The translations under genes were made by a program, and so were the position numbers. A DNA stretch of 32,000 bases from assembly GCA_016933055.1 (NCBI GenBank), contig JAFGBS010000026.1:1-32000 (forward strand), given 5' to 3'. Shown in pieces: positions 193 through 32,000 of the stretch. The notes beneath the pieces are model-generated. The model saw only the letters and a program-made list of their open reading frames with translations, was not told the DNA's origin and did no database searches. This stretch comes from Promethearchaeota archaeon. GTDB lineage: Archaea > Asgardarchaeota > Lokiarchaeia > Sigyniarchaeales > Promethearchaeaceae. Every line of letters begins with the position of its first letter. Position 1 is the stretch's first letter.

Positions 193-897
193 CTAAGGTT
201 TTTCTTTTTTTTCATCCAATTTATCTGCTTGATCAGATGAACTGTTATTATCAGAACTGGTTTGCTCTGATTCTTCTAAAATCGTAGCTTCCACGGGAAT
301 TGATTGGGGAGATTCTTTCTTTTTGGATACTATCACTTTCGCGGGTCTTAGTACATTTTCCCCTAAATAATAGCCTTTCTGAGCGATATTAATAACAGTA
401 TCTTCAGGATGTTGTTCATCGACCAATTTCATGAATACATCATGTTCTTTATAGTTAAAGGGAACATTAATTTCTTCAATTGGTTTTATTCCTAACCCCT
501 TTAATACTTGAAGAAATTGTTTTTGGAGAGATTTCAACCCATCTAGTAATTGTTCGTAGTCTTTCTTTGCGGTGGTTTCATACTTACTGATTGCTGCTTC
601 AAAGGAATCTACGATAGGCAAGAAATTACTAATAACCGAGACCTTTATATTGTATCTGCTATTTTCTATTCGTTTGAGTGCTATTTTTTGGCTATTCTCC
701 ATCTCAGCTTGAAGATACATTCGCTTTTTTTGGAGTTCCTCAATAGCAAATAAGGCATCGGTATATTTTTCCTCAAGACTCTTTGGTTTTGTTACCTTTT
801 TATTATTTTCTTCAATTTTTTCTTGTTTGTTTTGTTGACTGTTGTTTTCTTCCATGGAGTTCTCTTTTTTGTGCTTTGCTTTCTCCCTTTCTTTCAT
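193..897 (-). CDS. grpE: Nucleotide exchange factor GrpE
   Basis: N-terminal coiled coil (RMYLQAEMENSQK), FLPIVDSFE, C-terminal QKGYYLGENVLRPAKVIVSK typical of GrpE; lies downstream of dnaK-dnaJ on the same strand. Confidence 0.95.
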   Translation of the reverse strand: MKEREKAKHKKENSMEENNSQQNKQEKIEENNKKVTKPKSLEEKYTDALFAIEELQKKRMYLQAEMENSQKIALKRIENSRYNIKVSVISNFLPIVDSFEAAISKYETTAKKDYEQLLDGLKSLQKQFLQVLKGLGIKPIEEINVPFNYKEHDVFMKLVDEQHPEDTVINIAQKGYYLGENVLRPAKVIVSKKKESPQSIPVEATILEESEQTSSDNNSSSDQADKLDEKKEKP

Positions 898-920
898 AAT
901 TCACACCTGTTCCGGATTTA

Positions 921-2048
921 TCAAGAAAATTTTTTATATTTTTTTGGAATTGTATTATTCAGTTGATCTACTAAAGTTTGTCCTTCTTTAGTCAATTTCT
1001 TATAATCTGGAATTATTACTTCCACTGCAACAATATGGTCTCCTCGCAATTCCAATCTGTTCAAACGAGAAAATCCTTTTCCTTTAATTCGAAATTCCGT
1101 GCCACTTTGAGTGCCTGGAGGAATTCTTATTTTTCCCTTGCCATCAATCGTTTCCACAGGGATATGTGCTCCTTTCATAGCATCAATAATGGATATTCTC
1201 TGACTACTTCTAATATCCAAATTATCTCGTATGAAGTGATCATGTGGTGCAACTCGGATTGTGATGTATAAATCTCCGGGAATTGCGTCTGTGGTGGGAA
1301 TGTGTCCCATTCCTTGGACTTTTAAGGACATTCCAGATTCCACACCAGGCGGAATCGATACATTGATCTTTTTATCAACACGAACTACTTTATCCCCTCT
1401 GCACGTCAGACACTTATTTTTTATAATTTGTCCTTCTCCACGACACTGGGGGCAAGTAGTTACTTGGACTACCCGTCCAAATAATGAAGAGCGTACTTCT
1501 TGCACTTCCCCACGTCCATTGCATCGATCACAAGTTATGGTCGAATTCGACCCTCGTGCTCCTGTACCATGACAATCTGGGCATGGTTCATATCTTTTTA
1601 TTTGAACATCCTTCTTTATTCCAAAGACTGCCTCTTCGAATGAAATCTCAATTCGCTGTTCAATATCCTCTCCATATTGTTGGCGTCTTCTCCGTGAAGT
1701 TCTTGAGGATGTGCGACTTGATCCAAAAGGACCAAATCCTTCCCCAAAAAACATATCAAAAATATCTGACATACTCGAGAACCCATCTCCTCCAAATCCA
1801 CCCATTTGTGGACCATCAAATCCAAATTGATCGTAGGCTCGTCTTCGTTCATCATCACTTAAAACTGAATAAGCTTCTTGGATCTCTTTGAATTTTTCCT
1901 TTGCGGCTTCCTTTCCTTCTTTATCTTTTGTTCGGTCAGGATGATGTTGTAAAGCTAGTTTTCTAAATGCTTGTTTGATTTCATCCTTGGTGGCATCACG
2001 CGAGATCCCTAATACTTCATAATAATCTCGTTTGTTTTTTTTACTCAT
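921..2048 (-). CDS. dnaJ: Chaperone DnaJ (class A J-protein)
   Basis: J-domain (DYYEVLG, HPD), G/F-rich region, four CxxCxGxG-type repeats (CPDCHGTG, CDRCNGRG, CPQCRGEG, CLTCRGDK), C-terminal substrate-binding domains. Confidence 0.98.
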   Translation of the reverse strand: MSKKNKRDYYEVLGISRDATKDEIKQAFRKLALQHHPDRTKDKEGKEAAKEKFKEIQEAYSVLSDDERRRAYDQFGFDGPQMGGFGGDGFSSMSDIFDMFFGEGFGPFGSSRTSSRTSRRRRQQYGEDIEQRIEISFEEAVFGIKKDVQIKRYEPCPDCHGTGARGSNSTITCDRCNGRGEVQEVRSSLFGRVVQVTTCPQCRGEGQIIKNKCLTCRGDKVVRVDKKINVSIPPGVESGMSLKVQGMGHIPTTDAIPGDLYITIRVAPHDHFIRDNLDIRSSQRISIIDAMKGAHIPVETIDGKGKIRIPPGTQSGTEFRIKGKGFSRLNRLELRGDHIVAVEVIIPDYKKLTKEGQTLVDQLNNTIPKKYKKFS

Positions 2049-2128
2049 TCTCTTGACCTGTAATTTTGTTTATTTGATTTGTAAAAATAGGTGAAAATAA
2101 GGGGGGGATCTATGGGTGAGGAGATTTC

Positions 2129-4084
2129 CTAATCTTCCTCTTCCCAATCTACATCTACTGATTTTTTCTTCTTCTTCTTTTTAGGGTCCTCTTCGTAAGT
2201 TGCACCACCTGCACCTTTCGATTTTGCAGCATCTTGTGCGGCACGAGCGAAATCTTCCGCGTTAAATCCCGCTCCTCCCGGACCACCGGCAGCACCACTT
2301 GCTTGATAAATTTTAGTCCCAAATTTTTGAACTGATTCGTTTAACGTGTCATAGGTCGATTTGATTTTAGTATAATCCTCGGTTTTCAATGCATCTTTGA
2401 CATCATCTATTGCTCGAACTAGTTCATTTTTTAATGCGTCATCCAATTTATCAGTGTGCTCTTTCATCAATTTCTCAGTTTGGTATACCAGAGATTCAGC
2501 GTTATTTCTAGTTTCTACCCGTTCTTTCTTTACCTTATCGTCTTCTTCGTATTTCTTTGCTTCCTCAACCATCTTTTGAACATCCTCATCTCTGAGATCT
2601 CCTTTATTACGTTCGATGGTGATTTTCTGTTCTTTACCAGTTCCCAAATCTTTTGCGGTCACATTAACAATTCCATTTTCATCAATCTCAAATTTCACTT
2701 CAATTTGCGGTACACCACGAGGAGCAGGAGGGATTCCTTCTAATCGAAATCGTCCAAGAGATAAATTATCTGCTGCCATAGGTCGTTCACCTTGTAATAC
2801 ATTTATCTCAACAGCCGGTTGATTATCCGCTGCAGTTGAGAAAACTTTCGCGCGTTCACATGGGATAGTGGTATTTCTTTCGATTAAGGGAGTTCTTACC
2901 CCCCCAAGAGTTTCAATTCCTAGAGTGAGTGGAGTTACATCTAATAACAATAATTCATCAACATCTCCAGCCATAACTGCAGCTTGTATAGCCGCTCCGA
3001 TTGCAACACATTCCATTGGATCAACACTACGCTCTGGCTCTTTACCGAAGAATTTCTTGAAAGTTTCTCGAACTGAGGGCATACGTGTTGGTCCCCCGAC
3101 AAGGATCACTTTATCTATGTTACTTGGAGAGAAACCCGCGTCATCAATTGCACGTTGCATCGGCGCTTCAAGGCGTTTCAATACAGGCGCAATTAACTCT
3201 TCGAGTTTTGCACGAGTAAGTTCTATATCTAAATGTAATGGACCATTTTCATTTTGCGAAATGAATGGAAGATTGATGTTCGTCGAGTATGATGTGGAGA
3301 GTTCAATTTTTGCTTTTTCACTAGCTTCCAACACACGCGCCATAGCCGTTGAATCATCTCTAAGAGATAGATTATTCTTCCTCTTGAACTCAGACACAAC
3401 CCAATCGACAATCATTTTGTCCATATCTGTCCCTCCGAGAGCTGTATCTCCAGAAGTACTTAATACTTCGAAAACACCTTTACCGTCAACGGCTCCCATT
3501 TCCATAATAGTAACATCAAAAGTTCCTCCACCAAGATCTAAAACACAAATCTTTAGTGTTTTTTCTTTACTCTTATCTAAACCATACGCAAGGCATGCAG
3601 CAGTGGGTTCATTTATGATACGAACAACTTCTAAACCAGCAATAGTCCCTGCATCTTTAGTTGCCGTACGCTGGGCGTCGTTAAAATACGCAGGTACTGT
3701 AATTACTGCTTTTTTAATAGGTTCTCCGACATAAGCTTCACTATCTACTTTAATTTTTGTCAGGATCATTGCAGAAATTTCTTGAGGTGTGAATTCTTTA
3801 TCGTCAATTTTTATTTTATACCCCGTACCCATTTTTCTTTTAATCGCATGAATCGTACGATCGGGATTAGATACAGCTTGACGGCGCGCAGGCTCCCCAA
3901 TGAGTCGTGTTCCATCTTTTGAAAATGCAACATATGAGGGGAAAGCTTTACCTCCTAAAGATACTCCCTCTGCGGATGGAATCACTTCAGGTTTTCCACC
4001 AACTACTATAGCAGCGGCAGAATTTGAGGTCCCTAAGTCAATCCCAATAATTCTTTCTTTCTTAGTTTTTTTATCTTCTGTCAT
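2129..4084 (-). CDS. dnaK: Chaperone DnaK (Hsp70)
   Basis: [37 protein letters not shown] and [14 protein letters not shown] motifs; lacks the ~23-aa N-terminal insert, as in archaeal and Gram-positive DnaK. Confidence 0.99.
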
Positions 4085-4370: not shown

Positions 4371-5285
4371 TCACATGAGTTTAGTTTTTTGAAAAACGAG
4401 ACAATAATGATGATGTACATTAGAAATATAGGTATTAGGATATCCCCATATCCCTAATTTTTTATCGCTCTGACACCATATCATTTCCTGACGTAATGAA
4501 AATGAACCTTGTTCTCGCATTTTCAAAGCAAATTCCCATGCTAATGGATAAAATTGCTGCTTCTCTTTAAGAGTGTTTTGCATAATTACTACACAATAAC
4601 CATTGTCTTTCATTGCTTCTGCTATTTTGCTATATATATCTAGCAATGTATCCAAAAATTCATTATAATCTTCGATATTGCCTAGATCCTTTTCGAGTGT
4701 GCTAAATGTTGCGTCATAACCTTTTGCGATTCGATCTTTCTGTGTTGAATCTGAACCTCCTCGAGAATGATCCAGCATATCCCAATATGGTGGTGAACTA
4801 ATACAGAAATCAAATTTAGGTAATGTGGAGATTGTATCGATGCAATGAACATCTCCCAAAATTACATATTGATTAGTTCTTTTAGCGCCAATTTCAGCCC
4901 ATTTCTCTGATAGTTCGAAACCTATAGCGTTTCTCTCCACGGATTGTGCTGCAACCAAGGTGGAAGCAGTGCCACAGAAAGGATCAAGTACCCATGCACC
5001 TTTTTTGGTGAAAAATTTGATGAAACGGGCTATCAAATCCTCAGGGTATTTTGCTGGATGAAGGTCCTCTCCTTTCTTTTTATCTCTTGGTTTTGGTTTG
5101 TGAATGAACCAACTACGTGAGAAATGGATCCATTCTTTTCCCGTGAGATGATTTAGGGTATTTCTGGGGTGATAGGTCCCTCGTTCAGATACAATTACTG
5201 AATCGGGTTCTGCGGGTTGTTGATAAAATGGTGGGAACTTAAAGTCTAGATTTTGCTTCCAACGGATTAAATTATTTGATTTCAT
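4371..5285 (-). CDS. Orphan amino (N4-C/N6-A) DNA methyltransferase, permuted motif order
   Basis: HPAKYP element, motif I DPFCGTAS and catalytic motif IV SPPYW (in that order); no adjacent endonuclease ORF. Confidence 0.85.
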   Translation of the reverse strand: MKSNNLIRWKQNLDFKFPPFYQQPAEPDSVIVSERGTYHPRNTLNHLTGKEWIHFSRSWFIHKPKPRDKKKGEDLHPAKYPEDLIARFIKFFTKKGAWVLDPFCGTASTLVAAQSVERNAIGFELSEKWAEIGAKRTNQYVILGDVHCIDTISTLPKFDFCISSPPYWDMLDHSRGGSDSTQKDRIAKGYDATFSTLEKDLGNIEDYNEFLDTLLDIYSKIAEAMKDNGYCVVIMQNTLKEKQQFYPLAWEFALKMREQGSFSLRQEMIWCQSDKKLGIWGYPNTYISNVHHHYCLVFQKTKLM

Positions 5286-5395
5286 CCCAAATCTACTATT
5301 TTAGCATGTACTTAAAAAGATAAAAAACCTTATAAAAAAAATACATGCATTATGATTGAACCTTGTTGGTGAATTTATAGATTAAGGAAGGTGAT

Positions 5396-7273
5396 TTAAG
5401 ACGAGCTTTTTACTATAGGTTTTTCTACAGGGATATGGAGGGCTTTATGTTTTAGTTCCATTAACTCGTTGATTTCCTTTTGCACATTTGTGTGATCCAA
5501 ACCTACTTTATTATAAAACTGAGCACGTTTTGAATCCTCTTTTGTGGGTAGTCCAAATCCCCGTGCAATCCAGTAGATCAAATCCACAATAAGTTTAGAG
5601 GGTCCCGAAATATCCCTTGCCTTCCTTAGGGATTTAATCGTTTCTATATCCCAACCACCTAACAAGGCATGAATGGGGAAAAATACTAAGAATGGGCCAA
5701 CTATTAATGACCCAATGATAATAATAATAGACGAGAGTGCAGTACTCATATATACGGTCAATATGGGTAATAAAAAGTAACTGGCAATATACAATAATAG
5801 GATTTCTGCAAAAGCAGCAAGTAAGGGGGAAATGAGGGTTTGCCATTGGTTGATTCTCAATTCTGGAACACGTTTTCGTACAAGGAAAAGGCTTATTATC
5901 CATTTTACAATCCATCCCACTCCGAGGGAAATTACAAATGCTAATCCCCCTATCTGAGGTATCCAGTAAATTAAAAGGAACAACGTTCCAATGCGGATAA
6001 TTTGTTCTATTAAAATACCCACAATCGTGTATTCTGGTTTTCCAGATGCAATTAGGACGGTATCATTCACACTCGCAAGAACTTCCATCCAACGGAATCC
6101 TACGAGGATTTGGATGAGAATTATCGCATTTTTATAGTAAGAACCGGCGATGTTCCCTAATAGTGGTGCAATTGCTATGATGAATGCTCCTAAGAACCCA
6201 TTCACCATCGATGACCATCTATACTGCTGGTTGATGTAGTTGCGTGTGAGTGCAAATTTTCTATTGTGATAGGCTTCTGCTAGGGAGGATGTAGTAGGGA
6301 ATGAAAATGTTGATAGAGCACTACTAATTAATTGTGCTACATAGAACAAGCCAATAATAGTGGAGTAATTCGGTAGGAAATTAGTATAAATTAATACGAC
6401 AATAAGATTAGCACCTGGCACAATTAAACTGGGAACTAATGAACGTAATCCAAACCATAAGCTATTTTTTATTACATCTTTATCTACTCGAGGAATAAAC
6501 ACATCCACAAGTTTTATACGCGGATCAATTTTTTGTAAAACAGGTAAGGTCCATTTAGCAGCGATCGCTGCTGCGATGAAGTCATCAGCATAAGCTCCGA
6601 CAATACTCCCTATTGTTATTCCCATTAGTTCCCCAATGCCGGGTAATGCCCGTCCAATATACTTGCCAGCAAACACAAATGCAATCCGGGTGCTGGATTC
6701 AAGGATTACACCTTGGAAAAATCTCACCATAGAACTTTTATGAAATTGTTGGTAAGACTCCAATGTAGCTCGAAATACTCCTAAAAATCCAGGATACTGT
6801 ATTGTACTATGAAGTAGAAGAAAATAGGAAGCATATGCTAAATTTGATTCGTTGACACCCCCATATAGAACCCAAATGGCAATACCTGTCACTTGAAGCA
6901 AGCCCGAAATCATTTGGAACCAAATGAAAAATCGAATATAATGCAAGGATTTTAGTGGTTCTTTTACAGCGATTTCACCGATGAATCTTTGTAATGCCGA
7001 TCCGATCCCCAAATCAGCCAAAATAAATGTTAAATAAAATAATTGGGTTGTCATTTCCTGCCATCCGAGGGTTTCAGGATACGGATAAACATATCTTGGT
7101 AGAAGATATAAATTAATAACAACACCAAAAAGAATGGTTAAGACTATCAGAGTTAGATTATATAAGAGTCCTCCAAGAGGCCTATGAAACCCCACTTCAT
7201 CCCATAAACGTTCTTGAGTGGTATGAACATCCATCTTGTCATCTTGTACAGCTTTACTCTTAGCCCTCATCAA
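5396..7273 (-). CDS. Polytopic membrane protein, probable MOP-superfamily (oligosaccharide flippase/MATE-like) transporter
   Basis: About 13-14 hydrophobic segments; early FILADLGIGSALQRFIGE motif resembles the DLG motif of flippases. Confidence 0.65.
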   Translation of the reverse strand: MMRAKSKAVQDDKMDVHTTQERLWDEVGFHRPLGGLLYNLTLIVLTILFGVVINLYLLPRYVYPYPETLGWQEMTTQLFYLTFILADLGIGSALQRFIGEIAVKEPLKSLHYIRFFIWFQMISGLLQVTGIAIWVLYGGVNESNLAYASYFLLLHSTIQYPGFLGVFRATLESYQQFHKSSMVRFFQGVILESSTRIAFVFAGKYIGRALPGIGELMGITIGSIVGAYADDFIAAAIAAKWTLPVLQKIDPRIKLVDVFIPRVDKDVIKNSLWFGLRSLVPSLIVPGANLIVVLIYTNFLPNYSTIIGLFYVAQLISSALSTFSFPTTSSLAEAYHNRKFALTRNYINQQYRWSSMVNGFLGAFIIAIAPLLGNIAGSYYKNAIILIQILVGFRWMEVLASVNDTVLIASGKPEYTIVGILIEQIIRIGTLFLLIYWIPQIGGLAFVISLGVGWIVKWIISLFLVRKRVPELRINQWQTLISPLLAAFAEILLLYIASYFLLPILTVYMSTALSSIIIIIGSLIVGPFLVFFPIHALLGGWDIETIKSLRKARDISGPSKLIVDLIYWIARGFGLPTKEDSKRAQFYNKVGLDHTNVQKEINELMELKHKALHIPVEKPIVKSSS

Positions 7274-17943: not shown

Positions 17944-20412
17944 ATGATTGCAAACACCAAAAATTTATATCGGTTTCCTATAAATGCAAGCTTAATGACC
18001 AATGACTCTCCTTTGTATGAGAAAATCGAAGTACCGATTAAGAGTTTATTTCCTCTTGACAGAAACTATGCATTTTTAGCCGGTGCTGGAATTTCGATGG
18101 ATTCACCCTCCGATATGCCCTCAGCAAAACAGATGGTGATCCAATTGCTGAAATTGGTAGCACCAGAGGAGGAAGTGCATAATATTCTCCAATTGGATTC
18201 TTTACGCTTCGTAACGGTCGTGGAACTTATCCAAAATATTATTGATATGGATTTGAGGTTTTTAGATTATATGGAGCTAATAACCACTCCTAATCTTATC
18301 CATTTCTTCTTATCCCGATTAATTGTAAAAGGACATTCAATTGTAACTACAAATTTTGACTATTTGCTTGAATATGCCCTCAAACAAATCCTCCCTGCCC
18401 CAAAATACAAAAATATTCGGATTTTTGCCACAAAACAAAATTATATCGATGGGTCATTAAAACCCGAAATACTGCAAAATGCTTACAATCTCGTTAAAAT
18501 TCATGGTTCAAAACGAAATGTTATCACTATTACTGCCATACAGGATTCTATTGTCACCACAACCAGTGCTTTGGGTAGTGATCGGTCAGAGGAGGATACT
18601 TTTCTAATTAACTCTAACAAAAAAGATGTTATATATTCTCTAATGAAAGATCGCACATTAGTAGTCGTAGGATATTCTGGAAATGATGATTTTGGCATTT
18701 CGTCCCTAGTTAATGAGCTTCCGTTTCTCTCCCGTGTCATATGGATTGAACACTCAAACCAAGATAAATTTGAGATTCTCCGTTTCAGAAAACTACCTGT
18801 AAATGAAGATGAGGAGAACTATGTAGAAAATCAAAATAAGTCTCATCCCCCATTAGATCTCCTATTATCCAATCTACACATGAAACATGGATATGAGACG
18901 TTATTAATACGAGGTAATACAAAGATCTTAATTCAACATCATTTATGGTCTATTTTTCACCCCGACGTTCCTGCAGAAATTCATCCCCCAAGTTCTGGTC
19001 AACTCAACACAAGTTTTAATGATTTTGTTTTAAAACAATATAGAACAATAACTGGAACACAAAAATATCTCTTTGGTACGCAATTATTTTTCAAACTCAA
19101 ACAAATTCCCGCAGCAGTTCGTTGTGCACGTAGAGGTTTAGCATCTGCATCAATTACTGATGCACTAGCGGCTAAGTCAACGTTTTTGACCCTTCTCGGT
19201 TTATCTTATCAACTTCAAGAAGAGCACAAAAAAGCCTTAGATTTTTATAGTCGCGCTTTGCTTGTGAATAAAGAACTGGGAAACATTCCGGCTCAAGCTT
19301 CTCTCTTGAATAATATTGGTTCTGTATATAGGGAACTGAGAATATATGAAAAAGCCATTTCACATCATGAATTAGCTTTGAGAATCTGTGAAGAATTAGG
19401 AGATGTATCGGGGAAAATAACAGCTTTAGACAACTTGGGGCGCGTCCACGAGAAACACGGACAATATCAAAAAGCCAAGGATTATTATATCACAGCATTA
19501 GATTTCGCAGACAAGACTGGTGACCTCGAACGGAAAGTAATACTCCACAATAATATCGGGAAAATAATTAGCTCAGAGGATCCTAATACAGCAATCTTAC
19601 ACTATAAAAACGCATTGAAAGTTACGGAACTGTTAGGGGATTTACAAGGACAGAATATTTTATATAACAATATAGGCGCAGTTCTTCAGGAAAAAGGAGA
19701 TTTGGAGACTGCTATTTCTATGTTTAAAAAAACCGCCTTATTAGCCGAAAAGCTGGGGAGTATGTCGAAAAAAGCAGAGGCGTTAAGCAATCTTGGTTCA
19801 GTGTATCTCATTCGAAGTGATCTTGAAAAATCTGTGGAATATTTCAAGGAAGCAAGTATATTAGAAGAAAATCTTGGTAATCCAAAGTTAGCGGGTTTAT
19901 ATTACAACAAGATTGGAATCATAATGCAAAAAACCGGAAAACTTGAGAAAGCAATTGAATTCTATAAAAAAGCTCTGTTGAAGTTCGAATCCATTGCAGA
20001 TATGCATAATATCGCAATTATTTTAAGTAAATTAGGGGATTGCACTATTACCAAGAAGCAATACACAGAAGCGATTAGATATTTTCAGTGGGCGAGGAAA
20101 TTATATGCTTCCCCCGAATTGGATGATTTGGAAAATTATGCAGCAATTACAAATAACCTCGCAAAATGTTATGAAAATATTGGTAAACATACAGAAGCCT
20201 TAAGATATTATGAGGAAACTTTGGAAATACATGAAGAACTAGGAGATATTAAGCAAATCGCTGTGGATTTTTTTAATATCGGCAAAATTCAGCAACTCCA
20301 AGAGCATCTTCCAATTGCGGTGGATAATCTACGAAAAGCTCTAGACTTGTTTTCCCAACTGGGGATGGAAGACCAAGTAAAATCAATTCAACATCTACTC
20401 AATACATTATAA
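17944..20412 (+). CDS. SIR2-like domain fused to tetratricopeptide repeats
   Basis: FLAGAGIS, TTNFDYLLE, KIHGS and VVGYSGNDD SIR2 motifs; about ten 39-42-aa TPRs with N(N/K)(I/L)G signatures in the C-terminal half. Confidence 0.9.
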   Translation: MIANTKNLYRFPINASLMTNDSPLYEKIEVPIKSLFPLDRNYAFLAGAGISMDSPSDMPSAKQMVIQLLKLVAPEEEVHNILQLDSLRFVTVVELIQNIIDMDLRFLDYMELITTPNLIHFFLSRLIVKGHSIVTTNFDYLLEYALKQILPAPKYKNIRIFATKQNYIDGSLKPEILQNAYNLVKIHGSKRNVITITAIQDSIVTTTSALGSDRSEEDTFLINSNKKDVIYSLMKDRTLVVVGYSGNDDFGISSLVNELPFLSRVIWIEHSNQDKFEILRFRKLPVNEDEENYVENQNKSHPPLDLLLSNLHMKHGYETLLIRGNTKILIQHHLWSIFHPDVPAEIHPPSSGQLNTSFNDFVLKQYRTITGTQKYLFGTQLFFKLKQIPAAVRCARRGLASASITDALAAKSTFLTLLGLSYQLQEEHKKALDFYSRALLVNKELGNIPAQASLLNNIGSVYRELRIYEKAISHHELALRICEELGDVSGKITALDNLGRVHEKHGQYQKAKDYYITALDFADKTGDLERKVILHNNIGKIISSEDPNTAILHYKNALKVTELLGDLQGQNILYNNIGAVLQEKGDLETAISMFKKTALLAEKLGSMSKKAEALSNLGSVYLIRSDLEKSVEYFKEASILEENLGNPKLAGLYYNKIGIIMQKTGKLEKAIEFYKKALLKFESIADMHNIAIILSKLGDCTITKKQYTEAIRYFQWARKLYASPELDDLENYAAITNNLAKCYENIGKHTEALRYYEETLEIHEELGDIKQIAVDFFNIGKIQQLQEHLPIAVDNLRKALDLFSQLGMEDQVKSIQHLLNTL

Positions 20413-20431
20413 ACATCTAGGAATACGGAAT

Positions 20432-21346
20432 ATGATCTGGAATTATCTAATTGCTATCTTTATGGGAATTTGGAATAGTGTACTAATGAATCTAGCACAA
20501 GCGATGGAACGACATGGTATCGTAATCTTTGACAAAAAAACAAAGTCCCATGCTTCAGAATATCAATCTGAAGAGAAAAAAGGAAAAAAACCCTTAATTT
20601 ATACCATTGGGGTTATTTTAAATCAAACCCCCCCATTATGGATAATGATCTCTAATATATTTGCTCCCTTTACATATTTCACCTCCATGTACGGAATTGG
20701 ATTGATAGTGTTGTTGATCTATTCCGCAAAAATACTTAATGAGAAACTAACTACACGTAAAATTGTGGGAGCTGCAATTTTGATTTTAGGGACAATTACA
20801 TTAGGAATTGATGGAATTTTGCAACCCGAGCTGGATATGTCTGAGATCAATATTATTTCATCGTCCATATTTGTAGGAGGACTTGCTGTATTAGCAATAA
20901 TTCTCATACCTACATCATTGCACACGAAAAAACCGAAAATAATTGGAATTTGCTTTGGATTTATTTGTGGAAGTTTTCAGAGCTTGGATCCCGTCATAAA
21001 AGGGATCGGCCAATCATTTGGTGCGGAGAACACGGGATTTTTTCCCTCCACTCCTATTGGGTGGATAATTTTTTCAGCTAGTTTTCTTGCAGCTACCATT
21101 TCTTTTCTTTTGGCGCAAGTAGGATTCAGTAAAAAGACCGATGCATCGGTACAAGTACCAGTAGCCAATTCATCATTCATCATAATACCGATTCTGATTC
21201 AAGCAATAGCTTTACCGGGTTATTATATTAAAATTCTTACAATAATTGGCGTTACGGTTGTAATTTCTGGAATCCTTTTAATGCAAGTACATCCATTTGT
21301 TGCTTCTTCTCTTCCTTCGTCATCTATATCGAAGGATTCCCTTTAA
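20432..21346 (+). CDS. DMT-superfamily membrane protein
   Basis: About 9 TM segments in two halves; ILNEKLT..KIVGAAILILG motif typical of DMT/EamA-like transporters. Confidence 0.7.
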   Translation: MIWNYLIAIFMGIWNSVLMNLAQAMERHGIVIFDKKTKSHASEYQSEEKKGKKPLIYTIGVILNQTPPLWIMISNIFAPFTYFTSMYGIGLIVLLIYSAKILNEKLTTRKIVGAAILILGTITLGIDGILQPELDMSEINIISSSIFVGGLAVLAIILIPTSLHTKKPKIIGICFGFICGSFQSLDPVIKGIGQSFGAENTGFFPSTPIGWIIFSASFLAATISFLLAQVGFSKKTDASVQVPVANSSFIIIPILIQAIALPGYYIKILTIIGVTVVISGILLMQVHPFVASSLPSSSISKDSL

Positions 21347-24693: not shown

Positions 24694-24909
24694 ATGACAA
24701 CGAAAACTATCTCCATAAAAAAAGAAGTTTATGATATTTTGATTAGTATGAAGAGAATGAATGAGAGTTTTAGTGATTTATTCCTTCGGTTAGCAGAAAA
24801 AGAAAAACCGATGACTATTATTAAAGATATTATCGGAACGATGGATTTAGGAGATACTGATACCCTTATTCAAGAAATCCATAATCGTTGTGAGGATTGG
24901 CGAGGATGA
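24694..24909 (+). CDS. vapB: Antitoxin, archaeal VapB (ribbon-helix-helix type)
   Basis: KTISIKKEVYDIL..MK...ESFSDLFLRL pattern; ATGA overlap with the downstream PIN gene. Confidence 0.85.
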   Translation: MTTKTISIKKEVYDILISMKRMNESFSDLFLRLAEKEKPMTIIKDIIGTMDLGDTDTLIQEIHNRCEDWRG

Positions 24910-25298
24910 TTGTATTGGATACCGACGTGATAATCAAACTTATTGACAAGAAACACACCCCTTTCCAATCAGTTCTCATAAATAAACTCGAGGAAATTCA
25001 AGATGAAGATATTGTAACTACAGCATTAAATTTGGAGGAACTACTTTATGGGTTGTGTAAACGGAACAAGATTATTGATTTTTCCCATCCCATTTTCCGA
25101 TTGGAGGTTCTTCCCTTTAATGCGGAAACTGCTATGAGGGCAGCACAATTAGAACATTATCTCCAAAAAAAGGGCAAGAAGAAAACTCGAGGAGATATTT
25201 TAATAGCATCCATCGTATTGGAACAAAATGCAACTTTATTTACTTTACATACAAAAAAGTTCGAAGACTTTGAAGATTTATCTCTTGTGAAATTCTAA
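24906..25298 (+). CDS. vapC: PIN-domain toxin VapC
   Basis: IVLDTDVII, EELLYG and RGDILIASI motifs. ATG at 24906 overlaps the vapB TGA and is preferred over the TTG at 24897. Confidence 0.9.
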   Translation: MIVLDTDVIIKLIDKKHTPFQSVLINKLEEIQDEDIVTTALNLEELLYGLCKRNKIIDFSHPIFRLEVLPFNAETAMRAAQLEHYLQKKGKKKTRGDILIASIVLEQNATLFTLHTKKFEDFEDLSLVKF

Positions 25299-25364: not shown

Positions 25365-27101
25365 ATGAGTGAAATCGAATCCGAACAGACAGTTTCTGAA
25401 GAACTTCAATTCGTATACAGGAAGGAATTATGGTTTGCGAATCTTATTATTAATTCTACTCAAATTGACATGAAGACTATAGTGCACAAACTTAAAGAAT
25501 TCCTCGTAACTAAGTTGAAAAATCTCACTAAACAAGATATTCCCAATTGTGCTTGGAGCAATGATCTCCAAAAGAAAGTATTGGAGATTGCAAAACACTT
25601 AACTCTCACTATTTCATGGAATCCCGTACTTCTGAACTTCCCCTTTCAAGTAGAAAAATTGACCTATAATCAAGCGGGTTTTCTGGAATTTGATGTGGAA
25701 TATTTTAAGGGAAATTTAGAACGGAAAAGGCAATTAAAACCATGGATTTTACATGAAGTCCCGATATTCATCTTGACTCAGCTGAAGGAATATTTTACTC
25801 AAATTGATTATGTCATAGTCGATAAGGATCCTATGTACATGGTTGCGATTGCAGATCGGACCGAAGAAAGGGGGTTGCGAGTAGAAGTACCTTGGACGAA
25901 TATTGAAATGGAAAGACAAAAAAAATGCATTTTCCAATGGATTTCATTATATTCAGGACGATGGGATGATTTTCGAGATTCTTATTTGGAAAATACTGTG
26001 GAGGGGAATTTGGCTTATCGAAAATCGGAACTTCATTATATTCGAGATGAATCTGCATTTTTTTATATCGCCGAGTCAGATTTCAATGAATTTTTCGAAT
26101 CTTACTATAAATCCCGCATAATTAGAACGATTGGGGAAATCAGAGCGTTTCAAAATGCGATAATTGCCGTAAATAAATCTATCGATGAGTTAAAAACCAA
26201 TATCAATACTGCCGCTTACTTTAAATTGGAAAACGTGACTTTAACACTTTCAAAATTGGAGTATCTCGTGGGTGTGGTGGACAGCAGAATCAGTGAAATA
26301 AAAAATGACTTAGAATCGAACAGATATCGGTATTATAAAAAGGTGCTATTACATCTAGTTGAAATTATGGATATTGAACAGTTATCCGAACAATTACAGA
26401 GCAAAATTAGCCAAATCTCCGAATCCTTACAAAATCGCTATCGTAAAATACAACAAGTAAGTCAAGAACAACTGGAAAAATCTACTTTCTTCCTAAATAT
26501 TCTTTTCGGCCTCGGATTGTTCACTGATATAGTTGCACTAGGAGTAACCTTTGTATTCGCTTTATTCGGTGATCCTGGACTTGAAAATACGATTATATTA
26601 CTTTTATCGGGTATTTTTGGATCAATTTGTTTGATACTCATCTTTTATATTACCCATCGCATCATACGATTGCGAAAAAAGGATTCAGGGAAAAATCCGA
26701 TGCGGACTGTGGATGCAGTTATTATTGATGATAACAATAGAATTTTATTAATAAAAAGAAGATGGGAACCATTTAAAGGAGCTTATGCTCTTCCCGGAGG
26801 ATTTATTGAGCTTGCAGAAGAGCATATCGACGCCTTAGTGCGAGAAACTCGAGAAGAAACGGGTGTGGAATTACAATATGGAGAAATGCAATTCATCAAA
26901 GTATTTGATGACAAGAATCGCGATCCTCGTGGTCCAGTGCATTCATACGCTTATCTTTGTCGAGTGGATGATATTGAAGAACGGACACGTAATTATCATG
27001 ATAAAGGTCGTTTACTAATCATTCATATTAACGATTTAAAAGATTTTAAACTCGCATTTGACCATAGATATATAATCAAAGCGGCATTGAAGCGAGTTTA
27101 G
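25365..27101 (+). CDS. Fusion protein: large soluble/helical domain + 2 TM + C-terminal Nudix hydrolase (ADP-ribose pyrophosphatase-like)
   Basis: Canonical Nudix box GFIELAEEHIDALVRETREETGV, plus RDPR and LAFDH motifs; two hydrophobic segments preceded by long amphipathic helices. Confidence 0.85.
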   Translation: MSEIESEQTVSEELQFVYRKELWFANLIINSTQIDMKTIVHKLKEFLVTKLKNLTKQDIPNCAWSNDLQKKVLEIAKHLTLTISWNPVLLNFPFQVEKLTYNQAGFLEFDVEYFKGNLERKRQLKPWILHEVPIFILTQLKEYFTQIDYVIVDKDPMYMVAIADRTEERGLRVEVPWTNIEMERQKKCIFQWISLYSGRWDDFRDSYLENTVEGNLAYRKSELHYIRDESAFFYIAESDFNEFFESYYKSRIIRTIGEIRAFQNAIIAVNKSIDELKTNINTAAYFKLENVTLTLSKLEYLVGVVDSRISEIKNDLESNRYRYYKKVLLHLVEIMDIEQLSEQLQSKISQISESLQNRYRKIQQVSQEQLEKSTFFLNILFGLGLFTDIVALGVTFVFALFGDPGLENTIILLLSGIFGSICLILIFYITHRIIRLRKKDSGKNPMRTVDAVIIDDNNRILLIKRRWEPFKGAYALPGGFIELAEEHIDALVRETREETGVELQYGEMQFIKVFDDKNRDPRGPVHSYAYLCRVDDIEERTRNYHDKGRLLIIHINDLKDFKLAFDHRYIIKAALKRV

Positions 27102-29338: not shown

Positions 29339-30301
29339 TTAATCAATACTAGCGTTGTAAAGATGATCTAACTGCGTTATAGCGATTTCTTGATTGATTT
29401 GCTTTCTTTCCATCTTATCCATGACAATATTGACAAGATATTTAGGTATAAATCGTTTCAACTTTACGTCCGTGAAAATTACATAATGTGGTTCGGGTTT
29501 AGTCTCAATTTTTCGAAGATATCGGTTGCTTAATAATTTATTGACTATCTCCTCTTCTGCAAATTCTAAAATTTGTTCCATTGTGAGAGGTTTTTTCCGT
29601 AATTCATAGAATAGCTTCTGATATTTAAAATCTGAAAGAATACTCATTCCCATCTGCATTTCACGTAGTAAAAATCCTGGATCATCAGTTACACGAGTTT
29701 TATAGATTGTCAAAAATTGTTTTACACTCTTTTTATATTCACTATGGTATTGGAGGAATTTTTCATTTGTTGATAAATATTTATCCGTTAGTTTCGAGGG
29801 GATTCTAAAAACAATGAAATCTCCCACTAGATAATAAACCTCATGAAAAGTGTTTTTCAGAAAATTGAATTGAATTAAACCAGCTCTGATCAGTGGAATA
29901 AGGAGAAGATTGAACTCAGCTTGAGAAAAATCTTGCATCTCACTCATTATTTTGAAAAGTTCGTCATCCTTTAGTGGACCGTTCCGTAAATTCTTGTAGA
30001 TTTCATATCTTAACGGGTCGTTATAAATTGCATTCAATGCTTCCAGTTCAGTCATACGGTTTAACACTTGGATTTCCCGATTTTTCTCCCTTGCAATTTT
30101 CACATCACTATATGATCTGGCATCCCTTACATTAAGGTGATAATCAAGGAATAACATTAGGGCATGCTGAGGATCTCCATGAACATCAACATAGCCAAAA
30201 GGGTATGACTCCCGATCCTCGGCTAAATCTGCTGGAACAATCACCTCAACTTGTTTATCGCAAATATTACAGAACGCGCTAATTGATTTTGTTTTTGTCA
30301 T
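29339..30301 (-). CDS. Hypothetical protein: N-terminal CxxC/His module + two tandem winged-helix-like repeats
   Basis: CNIC...HGDPQHAL N-terminus; internally duplicated units ending YYLVGDFIVFRIP and HYVIFTDVKLKRFIP; GGAGG 7 nt before the ATG. Confidence 0.65.
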   Translation of the reverse strand: MTKTKSISAFCNICDKQVEVIVPADLAEDRESYPFGYVDVHGDPQHALMLFLDYHLNVRDARSYSDVKIAREKNREIQVLNRMTELEALNAIYNDPLRYEIYKNLRNGPLKDDELFKIMSEMQDFSQAEFNLLLIPLIRAGLIQFNFLKNTFHEVYYLVGDFIVFRIPSKLTDKYLSTNEKFLQYHSEYKKSVKQFLTIYKTRVTDDPGFLLREMQMGMSILSDFKYQKLFYELRKKPLTMEQILEFAEEEIVNKLLSNRYLRKIETKPEPHYVIFTDVKLKRFIPKYLVNIVMDKMERKQINQEIAITQLDHLYNASID

Positions 30302-30312
30302 TTGATGTCCTC

Positions 30313-32000
30313 CTATAGTAATTGATCAATCTCCTTGTTGATTATATCTGAAACGAGTGCATCTCTTGTGAATTCTGTGCGGTTTTTTATTTTTGGCAAA
30401 TTCAGCAAGTTTTTCTTGATAAAACTTACGTTTCGTTGAAACTTAGATAATTTAATATAGCGATTGTAAATGAGCAGACTCATCACTCCAAGTAGTGCCG
30501 TACCTGCAACAGAACCTGCTATCCACCAATATAGATTCCAATTTTGGGGAACAACTACCGTAATTAGGAAAGATTCATCCTCTCCATTTGGATTCGTAAT
30601 TCCGATATGTAAACTATATGGATTGATCCCAGGATTCAAACCGAATTGATCCAAGTTAATTGAATAGGTTCCATTTTCCAATGAGATTATGTTTCCCGCA
30701 ATACCATCAATGTACGAACTTATGTTAGCATCAGTTACATACACTCCATGACTCGAATCATAAACTGTGATATAGACCATATTGGAACCCCCCTCAGATA
30801 GAATTATGCTACTTGACGATAGCGTGACCTCAAAAACAACAGGTTGAATTTGGATGTACAAATTATATATTTGCGTTTGTACACCAGGTGCCTGAGCAAA
30901 GATTTGACTGAAATATATTTTTGGTTGTAAATCGGAAGTATCAAAATCCATAGTGTAAGCAGTTCCATTCCACATCAAAGTACCTTCGATATCTCCGATT
31001 AAGGTAATTGTTCCACCACTGAAACTTAAACCGTTAACACGATAATCCACACTGATTGTTACTTGATCACCCACGAAGAATTCTACCGGTTCATCATTTA
31101 ATAAAAATAATTCTGATGATACAGGTTCGATTAAAACCGTAACGAACAGACTTCGGGTTTCAAAACCTAATCTACTGATTTGAATTATAACAGTATATTG
31201 ACCTAAATCAAGACCGGTGGTATCAAAGTCTATAAAGAATTCGTCATTTAGTTCTGTTATATTTGAATTTTTTAACCATGTAACGATGCAGCTTGCACCA
31301 CTGATTAGAGTACCTGTATCGAAATAGGTGTAGTTTACTTTTATTGAAAATATTTCACCTTGTTCAATTGTGATTAAATTTACATTTCCCTCGATAACAG
31401 TGGATATGGGATCTACCAATACTGTAATAAATACATTCTTTGTTTCAAAACCCGTTTTATTTAATTGAATTGTTGCAGTATATTGATCTAACGTAAGATC
31501 CGTTGTATTGAACAGTATTTCGAAGCCATCTGTTACGGGAGTGATTTCATAGTATTTCACCCATGTCACTGAACACGTTGCACCTGAAATTATTGCTCCC
31601 CCGTAATATTCAGTATAATTGACTTTAATTGAAAATTGATTCCCTTGAGATACTCGAATGAAGGTTCTATTAGCTGCGATTGCAGTCTGAACCGGATTAA
31701 TCAATACTGAGATGATTATGCTTTTAGTTTCATATCCTGATTTATTTAGGTTTATAAAGGAAGTGTATTGATCCAAGGCTAACCCAGTTGTATCATAATC
31801 AATAATGAACTCATCCCCGATAACAGTAATATTTGTATCCAATGTCCATGTTACAGAGCAAGAGGCGTTTACTATAAGAGTTCCTAAACCAGTATCGGTA
31901 TAATTTACTTTAACACTGAATGGTGTGCCTTGAGAAATCTCAATAAATGTCGCATTTGCTTTAATTATTGATTGAATCGGATTTACTTGTAACAGAACAA
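30313..32000 (-). CDS. Large single-pass surface protein with tandem Ig-like repeats (5' end outside the window)
   Basis: Reading frame checked open from the TTG at 31842 to the window edge. ~96-aa repeats (QG..FS(I/V)KVNYT...A.C.VTW...QYT..I), many N-x-S/T sequons, C-terminal TM (YWWIAGSVAGTALLGVMSLLIY) and a short basic tail. Confidence 0.85.
   Translation of the reverse strand, partial: VLLQVNPIQSIIKANATFIEISQGTPFSVKVNYTDTGLGTLIVNASCSVTWTLDTNITVIGDEFIIDYDTTGLALDQYTSFINLNKSGYETKSIIISVLINPVQTAIAANRTFIRVSQGNQFSIKVNYTEYYGGAIISGATCSVTWVKYYEITPVTDGFEILFNTTDLTLDQYTATIQLNKTGFETKNVFITVLVDPISTVIEGNVNLITIEQGEIFSIKVNYTYFDTGTLISGASCIVTWLKNSNITELNDEFFIDFDTTGLDLGQYTVIIQISRLGFETRSLFVTVLIEPVSSELFLLNDEPVEFFVGDQVTISVDYRVNGLSFSGGTITLIGDIEGTLMWNGTAYTMDFDTSDLQPKIYFSQIFAQAPGVQTQIYNLYIQIQPVVFEVTLSSSSIILSEGGSNMVYITVYDSSHGVYVTDANISSYIDGIAGNIISLENGTYSINLDQFGLNPGINPYSLHIGITNPNGEDESFLITVVVPQNWNLYWWIAGSVAGTALLGVMSLLIYNRYIKLSKFQRNVSFIKKNLLNLPKIKNRTEFTRDALVSDIINKEIDQLL

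Follow-up and report, generated by a model that had tools for sequence, protein, structure and literature searches.

The Gene and Its Protein

The stretch of DNA analyzed here, called the window, comprises positions 1 to 32,000 of contig JAFGBS010000026.1 in the Promethearchaeota archaeon assembly GCA_016933055.1. Towards its end the forward strand encodes for a membrane protein in which a module resembling CorA in predicted shape is fused to a C-terminal Nudix domain. The gene (25365..27101, P0001) is one uninterrupted open reading frame (ORF) of 578 amino acids with an ATG start, and this start codon is backed by relatives whose alignment begins at the first residues. Some 20–40 nt ahead of the ATG there is an A/T-rich, TATA-box-like stretch, and beyond the stop codon an oligo-T run, which could fit an independent transcription unit.

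The layout of the protein is a cytoplasmic part of 372 residues, a transmembrane (TM) hairpin and the Nudix domain (PF00293). The latter is the sole Pfam domain of the protein, and residues 1–445 have no significant match. AlphaFold2 (AF2) models from alignments of 45–46 rows reached a predicted local distance difference test (pLDDT) score of 90.2 and a predicted template modelling (pTM) score of 0.83 for the full-length protein, and a pLDDT of 90.6 for residues 1–442. AF2 places a seven-stranded α/β domain at residues 15–235, followed by helices at 237–282, 288–318 and 322–334, a 65-residue helix (337–401) that is continuous with the first TM segment (TM1), and TM2 (407–440). Hydropathy analysis gave two hydrophobic peaks, with centres at residues 382–394 and 414–427. 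A preliminary description of this DNA, made by a model that saw only the letters and a list of ORFs, had placed an α/β region, helices ending in a stalk, two TM segments (nt 26488–26655) and a Nudix domain in this order; the TM span agrees with the hydropathy peaks, and the whole architecture is matched by AF2 and hydropathy together. Because the net charge is +2 ahead of TM1, −2 in the TM1–TM2 loop and +5 past TM2, the positive-inside rule indicates an N-in/C-in topology, in which the N-terminal part and the Nudix domain are both predicted to be cytoplasmic. The most conserved polar residues of the family are found in the N-domain (D153, W177, W192, Y196, G198, D202, N215, R219, E222, H224 and S230).

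The Nudix Domain

PF00293 matches residues 446–572 with an E-value of 3.6e-18 (66.3 bits, against a cut-off of 21.1). The Nudix box GX5EX7REUXEEXGU is complete (G478/G479, E485, R493, E494, E497, E498 and G500), and the motifs RDPRG (519–523) and LAFDH (563–567) are present as well. The box and both motifs had been pointed out for this gene before, and all are nearly invariant across the family described below. The replacement of the usual GDDA loop by YHDK, also pointed out, is confined to the window gene's own clade, and GGDD is retained in clade B. Of the 49 Nudix-bearing family members, 47 have an intact catalytic box, a conservation that indicates a predicted hydrolase under selection.

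The best NCBIfam matches are to the Nudix half of NadM and to a repressor family that responds to ADP-ribose (ADPR) (NF003786, 2.3e-15; NF050029, 9.2e-15). The closest solved relatives are 2fml, 2yyh, NadM (2qjt/2qjo), AraR and NrtR, including the NrtR–ADPR complex 3gz8, and also 5bs6; Foldseek matches to Nudix structures have E-values of 7e-10 to 1e-8, and in the alignment with 2fml both RDPRG and LAFDH are common to the two. PADLOC models matched the 578-residue protein only with PDC-S07 (Nudix, 3.7e-11) and, weakly, with LeoBC. The NCBIfam and structure matches agree with the first assignment to the NadM/NrtR-type ADPR Nudix domains. By sequence and structure the domain is closest to this clade, and ADPR is its predicted substrate.

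The N-Terminal Module Resembles CorA in Shape

Foldseek with the full-length model returned Nudix matches only, so the N-terminal module (N-module) was modelled alone. A Foldseek search of this model against the PDB gave best rows that were nearly all CorA, with E-values of 3e-3 to 3e-2 and none below 1e-3. The structural search was made with VIA-align over 48,161 representatives, and the Foldseek top 1000 were re-aligned. In the VIA-align search, CorA/ZntB were the only chains that covered the whole module (5jrw, Z 7.5 over 230 residues; 4ev6, Z 6.6; 5n77, Z 6.7; 3ck6, Z 6.2). After re-alignment, the first 12 rows were all CorA/Mrs2, with Z scores of 7.3–8.3 over 221–239 residues and spanning model residues 18–437. 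Sorted by protein, Z was 8.3 for TmCorA (224–239 residues aligned, root mean square deviation about 7 Å), 7.5 for MjCorA, 7.3 for CtMrs2, 6.9 for CjCorA, 6.7 for EcCorA and 6.0–6.2 for ZntB; Z scores of 6–8.3 are in the range where, as the tool warns, a match can reflect a common arrangement. Among solved structures, an alignment from end to end (model residues about 18–435) was obtained only with CorA, Mrs2 and ZntB. This coverage and the consistency over five MIT subfamilies argue for a CorA-like architecture of the modelled protein despite the modest Z.

The sequence itself gave no such link. GMN is missing in P0001, as the preliminary description stated, and in each of 45 family members, whereas the genome's own two CorA genes carry YGMN. 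PF01544 had no match at E ≤ 1 in P0001 or any of the 45 members, and neither phmmer nor profile searches linked the N-module significantly to any PDB sequence. An hhalign comparison with 20 Asgard CorA sequences reached a probability of 11%, with only the stalk end and both TM segments in register. Because of the modest Z (8.3 at most), the lack of PF01544 and GMN and the low hhalign probability, we regard the modelled module as CorA-like in shape, with its homology to CorA unproven, and leave it outside the CorA family. The CorA architecture first suggested is borne out by the order of the fold and the end-to-end alignment. The same evidence bears on the idea of a true divalent-cation channel of the CorA/MIT superfamily with an incidental Nudix domain, which might for example supply or sense Mg2+/Mn2+ for that domain. 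Such a channel would account for the end-to-end alignment to CorA, Mrs2 and ZntB and for the acidic TM1–TM2 loop. With GMN in 0/45 members, no PF01544 match, an hhalign probability of 11% and two canonical YGMN CorA genes already in the genome, it seems very improbable.

Better structural matches of the N-module than these solved chains are predicted proteins in the ESM Atlas, with TM-scores of 0.61–0.65 over 320–360 residues. These look-alikes belong to the MJ0711_N family (PF27233) or are bacterial proteins with α-amylase or GGACT domains; the shape may be a widespread scaffold for membrane-tethered enzymes. Literature searches on MJ0711 found no mention of it. A language-model search led to a cluster named ‘CorA-like protein’ (score 0.91). 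Prediction of a two-copy complex of the N-module scored 0.00 (mark 0.42), which is evidence neither for nor against an oligomer.

Distribution of the Family

A word-indexed search returned 15 relatives of 553–615 amino acids, all with a Nudix domain; for two the source gives Promethearchaeota as label. With residues 1–445 as query, an exhaustive HMMER search returned 73 cluster representatives, of which 20 were scanned with Pfam. The longer ones (539–849 amino acids) mostly have a C-terminal Nudix domain, and ten, mostly shorter (405–556 amino acids), have no Pfam domain at all. We found no separate Nudix gene beside the stand-alone members. Since the N-module occurs without the Nudix domain, the sequences define it as an autonomous, unnamed membrane protein family of about 440 amino acids. 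Two of the Nudix-less members (G087:C26:1175-2365 and G149:C77:1175-2365) read through one in-frame TGA, which a sequencing error, a pseudogene or recoding could explain.

The family is so far confined to Asgard archaea. Matches were present in 44 of the 201 genomes of the phylum, mostly in the order of the window's genome (26/41 in family f2), and the fusion was seen in about 50 loci of Promethearchaeota, Hel- and Hermodarchaeota. The concern raised in the preliminary description that the fusion might be an assembly artefact is removed by its occurrence, at 27–70% identity, in many independent assemblies. The genome of the window (G000) contains a paralog (G000:C17:2362-4128) that is 40% identical to the window gene. 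In the tree, three Nudix-bearing clades are separated, with the Nudix-less forms outside them. Clade A comprises the window gene, the metagenomic relative L001 and the paralog, while members of clade B have about 575 and those of clade C about 557 amino acids.

Association With Genes for NAD Cleavage and Synthesis

Neighbour ORFs of 23 loci were compared by clustering; not every ORF was annotated. Each of the three Nudix-bearing clades is tied to a different NAD-related gene: SIR2-TPR in clade A, TIR in clade B and at the paralog, and NadA in clade C. The proteins of one recurring neighbour cluster have a TIR domain (PF13676) in common. The paralog has a TIR gene on either side, and of the three TIR_2 matches in the whole genome the two above the cut-off are exactly these flanking genes. 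At locus L050 a WD40-TIR protein of 1193 amino acids is encoded directly upstream of the family gene; L053 has three TIR proteins, L003 a WD40-TIR protein and L068 a TIR protein of 518 amino acids. A scan of 185,579 species genomes added 26 further loci, a few of which duplicate earlier ones. Using a TIR hidden Markov model (HMM) built from six Pfam-verified TIR regions, a TIR gene was found to adjoin the clade-B gene in 14 of the 26, and several of the loci lacking one end at a contig edge. The TIR partners vary in side, strand and architecture (344–1421 amino acids), and this variation is a sign of functional linkage, not of inherited gene order. By an estimate from the TIR counts per genome, which is only indicative as related genomes are not independent, about 0.4 chance adjacencies were expected in the sampled genomes versus 4 seen. 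A conserved four-TM protein of about 145 amino acids with a weak DUF7144 match is always encoded directly upstream of the WD40-TIR protein of about 1190 amino acids beside clade-B genes, and may belong to the WD40-TIR system as its third component.

For clade A, a SIR2_2-TPR gene is present near all three copies. The window's genome has four SIR2_2 matches, the best two of which are located 5 kb from the window gene and about 1 kb from the paralog, and the two SIR2-TPR proteins are 32% identical along SIR2 and TPR. The paralog, a TIR gene and SIR2-TPR share one orientation and are separated by 231 and 50 bp.

About a dozen clade-C loci have the gene for NadA (quinolinate synthase) directly beside the family gene, in a conserved synteny block, and NadA also adjoins the clade-B copies at L048 and L003. 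This could imply an enzyme of NAD homeostasis that has no part in defence and transduces a signal: its N-domain would sense a cytoplasmic or membrane cue and control the activity of the Nudix domain on ADPR or NAD, and the TIR and SIR2 proteins would simply share metabolite pools with it. NrtR and NadM likewise tie this Nudix clade to the control of NAD synthesis. Yet the NadA adjacency stems for the most part from a single conserved synteny block with one gene order, the variable side, strand and architecture of the TIR partners are typical of conflict systems, and WD40-TIR and SIR2-TPR are architectures of sensor NADases, not of housekeeping enzymes; we therefore consider a role in homeostasis unlikely. 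On one Promethearchaeota contig (L079:8679-15943), NadA, a clade-C copy, a clade-B copy, WD40-TIR and the 145-residue four-TM gene follow each other in this order, showing that clades B and C can be tandem neighbours. Other recurring clusters in the 23 loci were a hexapeptide transferase, a leucine-rich repeat (LRR) protein and a winged helix-turn-helix (wHTH) protein, and, by precomputed annotation of L003, HGD-D, LSM and Roadblock.

Proposed Function

Since a Nudix domain of the ADPR clade is fused to a CorA-shaped module beside genes for TIR and SIR2 enzymes, we propose, at a probability of roughly 45%, a Thoeris-like NAD/ADPR pathway with this protein as its membrane component, in which a CorA-like stalk/TM bundle is controlled by a ligand that the Nudix domain degrades. 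Thoeris is an established case in which TIR and SIR2 domains turn NAD into ADPR or signals derived from it by cleavage, and in its type II, His-ADPR activates a Macro-TM pore (10.64898/2025.12.03.692087). In the Asgard system, a triggered TIR or SIR2 NADase would release ADPR or an ADPR-derived nucleotide, which would bind the Nudix domain, the conserved pocket of the N-domain, or both. Binding would shift the state of an oligomeric stalk/TM bundle and lead to ion leak or membrane damage, and thereby to growth arrest. Lastly, the active Nudix site would split the pyrophosphate of the ligand and so reset or limit the response, comparable to the NrN enzyme, which certain CorA effectors of type III CRISPR carry as a fused part. 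For the window copy, the trigger might be the SIR2-TPR product or, in trans, the TIR genes beside the paralog. The preliminary description had already suggested a pore that is regulated by, or degrades, ADPR or a related signal. Its signal gains from the clade of the Nudix domain and from neighbouring TIR and SIR2 genes that it could not see. The pore as such, a ‘chanzyme’ in which a CorA-like oligomeric channel is gated by an NAD-derived nucleotide (ADPR, a cyclic ADPR isomer or a conjugate) from neighbouring TIR/SIR2 sensors and its own Nudix domain both recognises and destroys this ligand, is possible and at present doubtful.

Several observations weigh against the proposed pathway. Firstly, the similarity to CorA is modest, finds no counterpart in sequence or profile comparisons and could stem from a helical arrangement that is common, and the bacterial look-alikes of the N-module with α-amylase or GGACT domains would be odd for a killing pore. 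Secondly, in signalling effectors the sensor domain has usually lost its catalytic activity, NrtR and NUDT9H of human TRPM2 being examples; the Nudix domain studied here looks active from its residues, which equally fits a plain hydrolase. Thirdly, many WD40-TIR proteins may themselves be NAD-depleting effectors. Clade C adjoins NadA without TIR, which hints at NAD housekeeping. In the window itself, no TIR gene was found on the contig, and the SIR2-TPR gene lies 5 kb off, with sulfatase, dehydrogenase, PNPOx and vapBC genes intervening. The link of the window copy to NADases is thus indirect and rests on the paralog, the clade and SIR2-TPR at this distance.

The main rival explanation is a membrane-anchored pyrophosphatase for ADPR or a TIR product that forms no pore; the CorA-like module would anchor, oligomerise or regulate the enzyme. 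It could clear the ADPR-type products of TIR/SIR2 NADases and serve in self-protection, in signal reset or in making NAD depletion irreversible by destroying ADPR that viruses could reuse. The intact box and the NadA neighbourhood fit this rival as well as they fit the Thoeris-like pathway, and the TIR and SIR2 neighbours apply equally to both. A catalytic site kept in 47/49 members and bacterial look-alikes that carry other enzymes are in its favour, and so are the enzymatic role of the NadM-type Nudix clade in NAD metabolism (PMC9503650) and the known reconstitution of NAD from ADPR by phages (10.1101/2024.02.11.579819). A strongly conserved module of 440 residues with a CorA-like stalk and TM hairpin would be a costly anchor, though. 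The module also exists without the enzyme and so has a function of its own, and the conserved polar pocket in the N-domain suggests ligand sensing. We consider the anchored enzyme a tentative alternative, less probable than even.

Surroundings of the Window Gene

The coordinates of the features are collected in Table 1. The vapBC pair had been noted 66 bp upstream on the same strand, and the coordinates agree with this. As a functional partner vapBC was rejected, as it is common only to the nearest relative L001, where vapC is shortened; its adjacency is probably incidental and not part of the system. A downstream protein of 320 amino acids was considered as a hidden TIR protein and rejected, having no Pfam, PADLOC or TIR-HMM match. 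No Cas families were found among the Pfam-annotated neighbours in the window (vapBC, dehydrogenase, sulfatase, SIR2-TPR, methylase, the DnaK operon and others), a scan that did not include an ORF of 666 amino acids beside the gene; from its sequence, this ORF looks like a P-type ATPase.

Table 1. Positions of the fusion gene, its predicted parts and associated genes.
Feature	Position	Strand	Basis
Whole gene, CorA-like membrane module + Nudix, 578 aa (P0001)	25365..27101	+	ORF, relatives, AF2
Predicted cytoplasmic α/β N-domain, residues 1-236	25365..26072	+	AF2 secondary structure, conservation, alignment to CorA/ZntB cytosolic domain
Predicted helical stalk region, residues 237-372: three helices + cytoplasmic part of TM1 long helix	26073..26480	+	AF2
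TM1, about residues 373-401; conserved start L-N-I-L-x-G-x-G, no GMN at end	26481..26567	+	Hydropathy, AF2
TM2, about residues 407-433, then basic cytoplasmic linker (net +5)	26583..26663	+	Hydropathy, AF2
Nudix domain, NadM/NrtR-like, residues 446-572	26700..27080	+	Pfam, NCBIfam, structures
Nudix box, residues 478-500	26796-26864	+	Sequence
vapB (PF02697)	24694-24909	+	Pfam
vapC (PIN)	24897-25298	+	Pfam; 66 bp upstream of gene
SIR2_2-TPR protein, 822 aa, candidate NAD-cleaving partner	17944..20412	+	5 kb upstream; 32%-identical homologue beside the paralog's TIR gene
Four-TM protein beside WD40-TIR (other loci)	L050:3627-4067, L003:7902-8330; also L078, L079, L083, L086, L089, L092, L096		

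Further genes of the window were seen in passing. The SIR2_2-TPR gene is followed 20 bp on by a gene for a protein of 304 amino acids without Pfam or PADLOC family (17944-21346 for both), a pair that is kept in L001; the SIR2 part of the 822-residue protein has weak matches to PADLOC SIR2 models. On the reverse strand, 29339-31998 encodes for the 320-residue protein and one of more than 561 amino acids, both without a family match and syntenic with proteins of 320 and 1316 amino acids in L001. An N6/N4 DNA methylase (303 amino acids) adjoins a protein of 625 amino acids without Pfam family at 4371-7273 (−), and the two may be a restriction-modification pair. A grpE-dnaJ-dnaK chaperone operon occupies 193-4084 (−).

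Comparison With Known Systems

Literature searches on the combination of CorA-like, Nudix and TIR proteins in archaea gave nothing specific, and no description of the fusion was found. The immunity of bacteria, plants and animals alike makes use of TIR-based NAD signalling, and eukaryotes have no closer known relatives than Asgard archaea. If the proposed pathway is true, it would extend the Thoeris-like repertoire into Asgard archaea with a new effector type, a CorA-shaped membrane module joined to an ADPR-type Nudix domain with a predicted active site, whose genes recur with those of WD40-TIR and SIR2-TPR sensors. After CorA-NrN of type III CRISPR, it would provide a second, independent example of a CorA-shaped effector with a signal-degrading enzyme fused to it, and a prokaryotic counterpart, as functional analogue, of the ADPR-gated channel TRPM2. 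The plainer reading, a membrane-bound ADPR hydrolase that guards against or reinforces NADase action, would still define an unnamed family of 440-residue membrane proteins.

Among the known systems, Thoeris resembles the Asgard loci in that TIR genes adjoin a protein that joins a domain recognising ADPR to TM helices; this applies to other loci of the family, the window copy having no adjacent TIR gene. In contrast to Thoeris, the effector domains (Nudix and the CorA-like module) are new and fit no described effector type (SLOG-SIR2, Macro-TM, caspase-like and others), the partner TIR domains belong to large WD40/LVIVD repeat proteins, and the hosts are archaea. A 2025 survey of Thoeris types I–XI mentions neither Nudix nor CorA in its main text (10.64898/2025.12.03.692087).

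Type III CRISPR CorA effectors have an obligate partner, the NrN phosphodiesterase that degrades S-adenosylmethionine-AMP (SAM-AMP); in some species the two are fused (Chi et al. 2023, PMC10600005). Such effectors, with NrN/DEDD phosphodiesterase or SAM-AMP lyase, likewise combine a CorA-shaped membrane protein, a divergent ligand-binding cytoplasmic domain and a signal-degrading partner enzyme, and have no role in Mg2+ transport (PMC10600005). They differ from the Asgard protein in several respects: the latter has no cas genes among the neighbours examined, is fused to a Nudix pyrophosphatase and not to a DHH/DEDD phosphodiesterase, has no detectable sequence similarity to CorA, and its implied signal would be NAD-derived (TIR/SIR2) and not SAM-AMP.

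For the Nudix domain, the NadM-Nudix, NrtR and 2fml-type proteins are the best matches in sequence and structure, with RDPRG, LAFDH and the Nudix fold in common. NadM and NrtR are soluble and fused to an NMN adenylyltransferase or wHTH domain, and NrtR is a non-catalytic sensor, whereas the box studied here is intact. TRPM2 is alike in concept, with an ADPR-type Nudix domain at the C-terminus of a channel-like membrane protein (PMC5671594), but its channel fold is unrelated, a six-TM TRP tetramer, and its Nudix domain belongs to a different subfamily (NUDT9), which makes it an analogy only. Lastly, CorA, Mrs2 and ZntB (MIT superfamily, PF01544) share with the modelled protein the α/β cytoplasmic domain, the stalk helix that runs into TM1, a second TM segment and the N-in/C-in topology, at Z 6–8.3 over about 220–240 residues. 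The Asgard protein is set apart from them by the lack of GMN and of any HMM or profile match, by its larger N-domain and by the domain of 135 amino acids that follows TM2.

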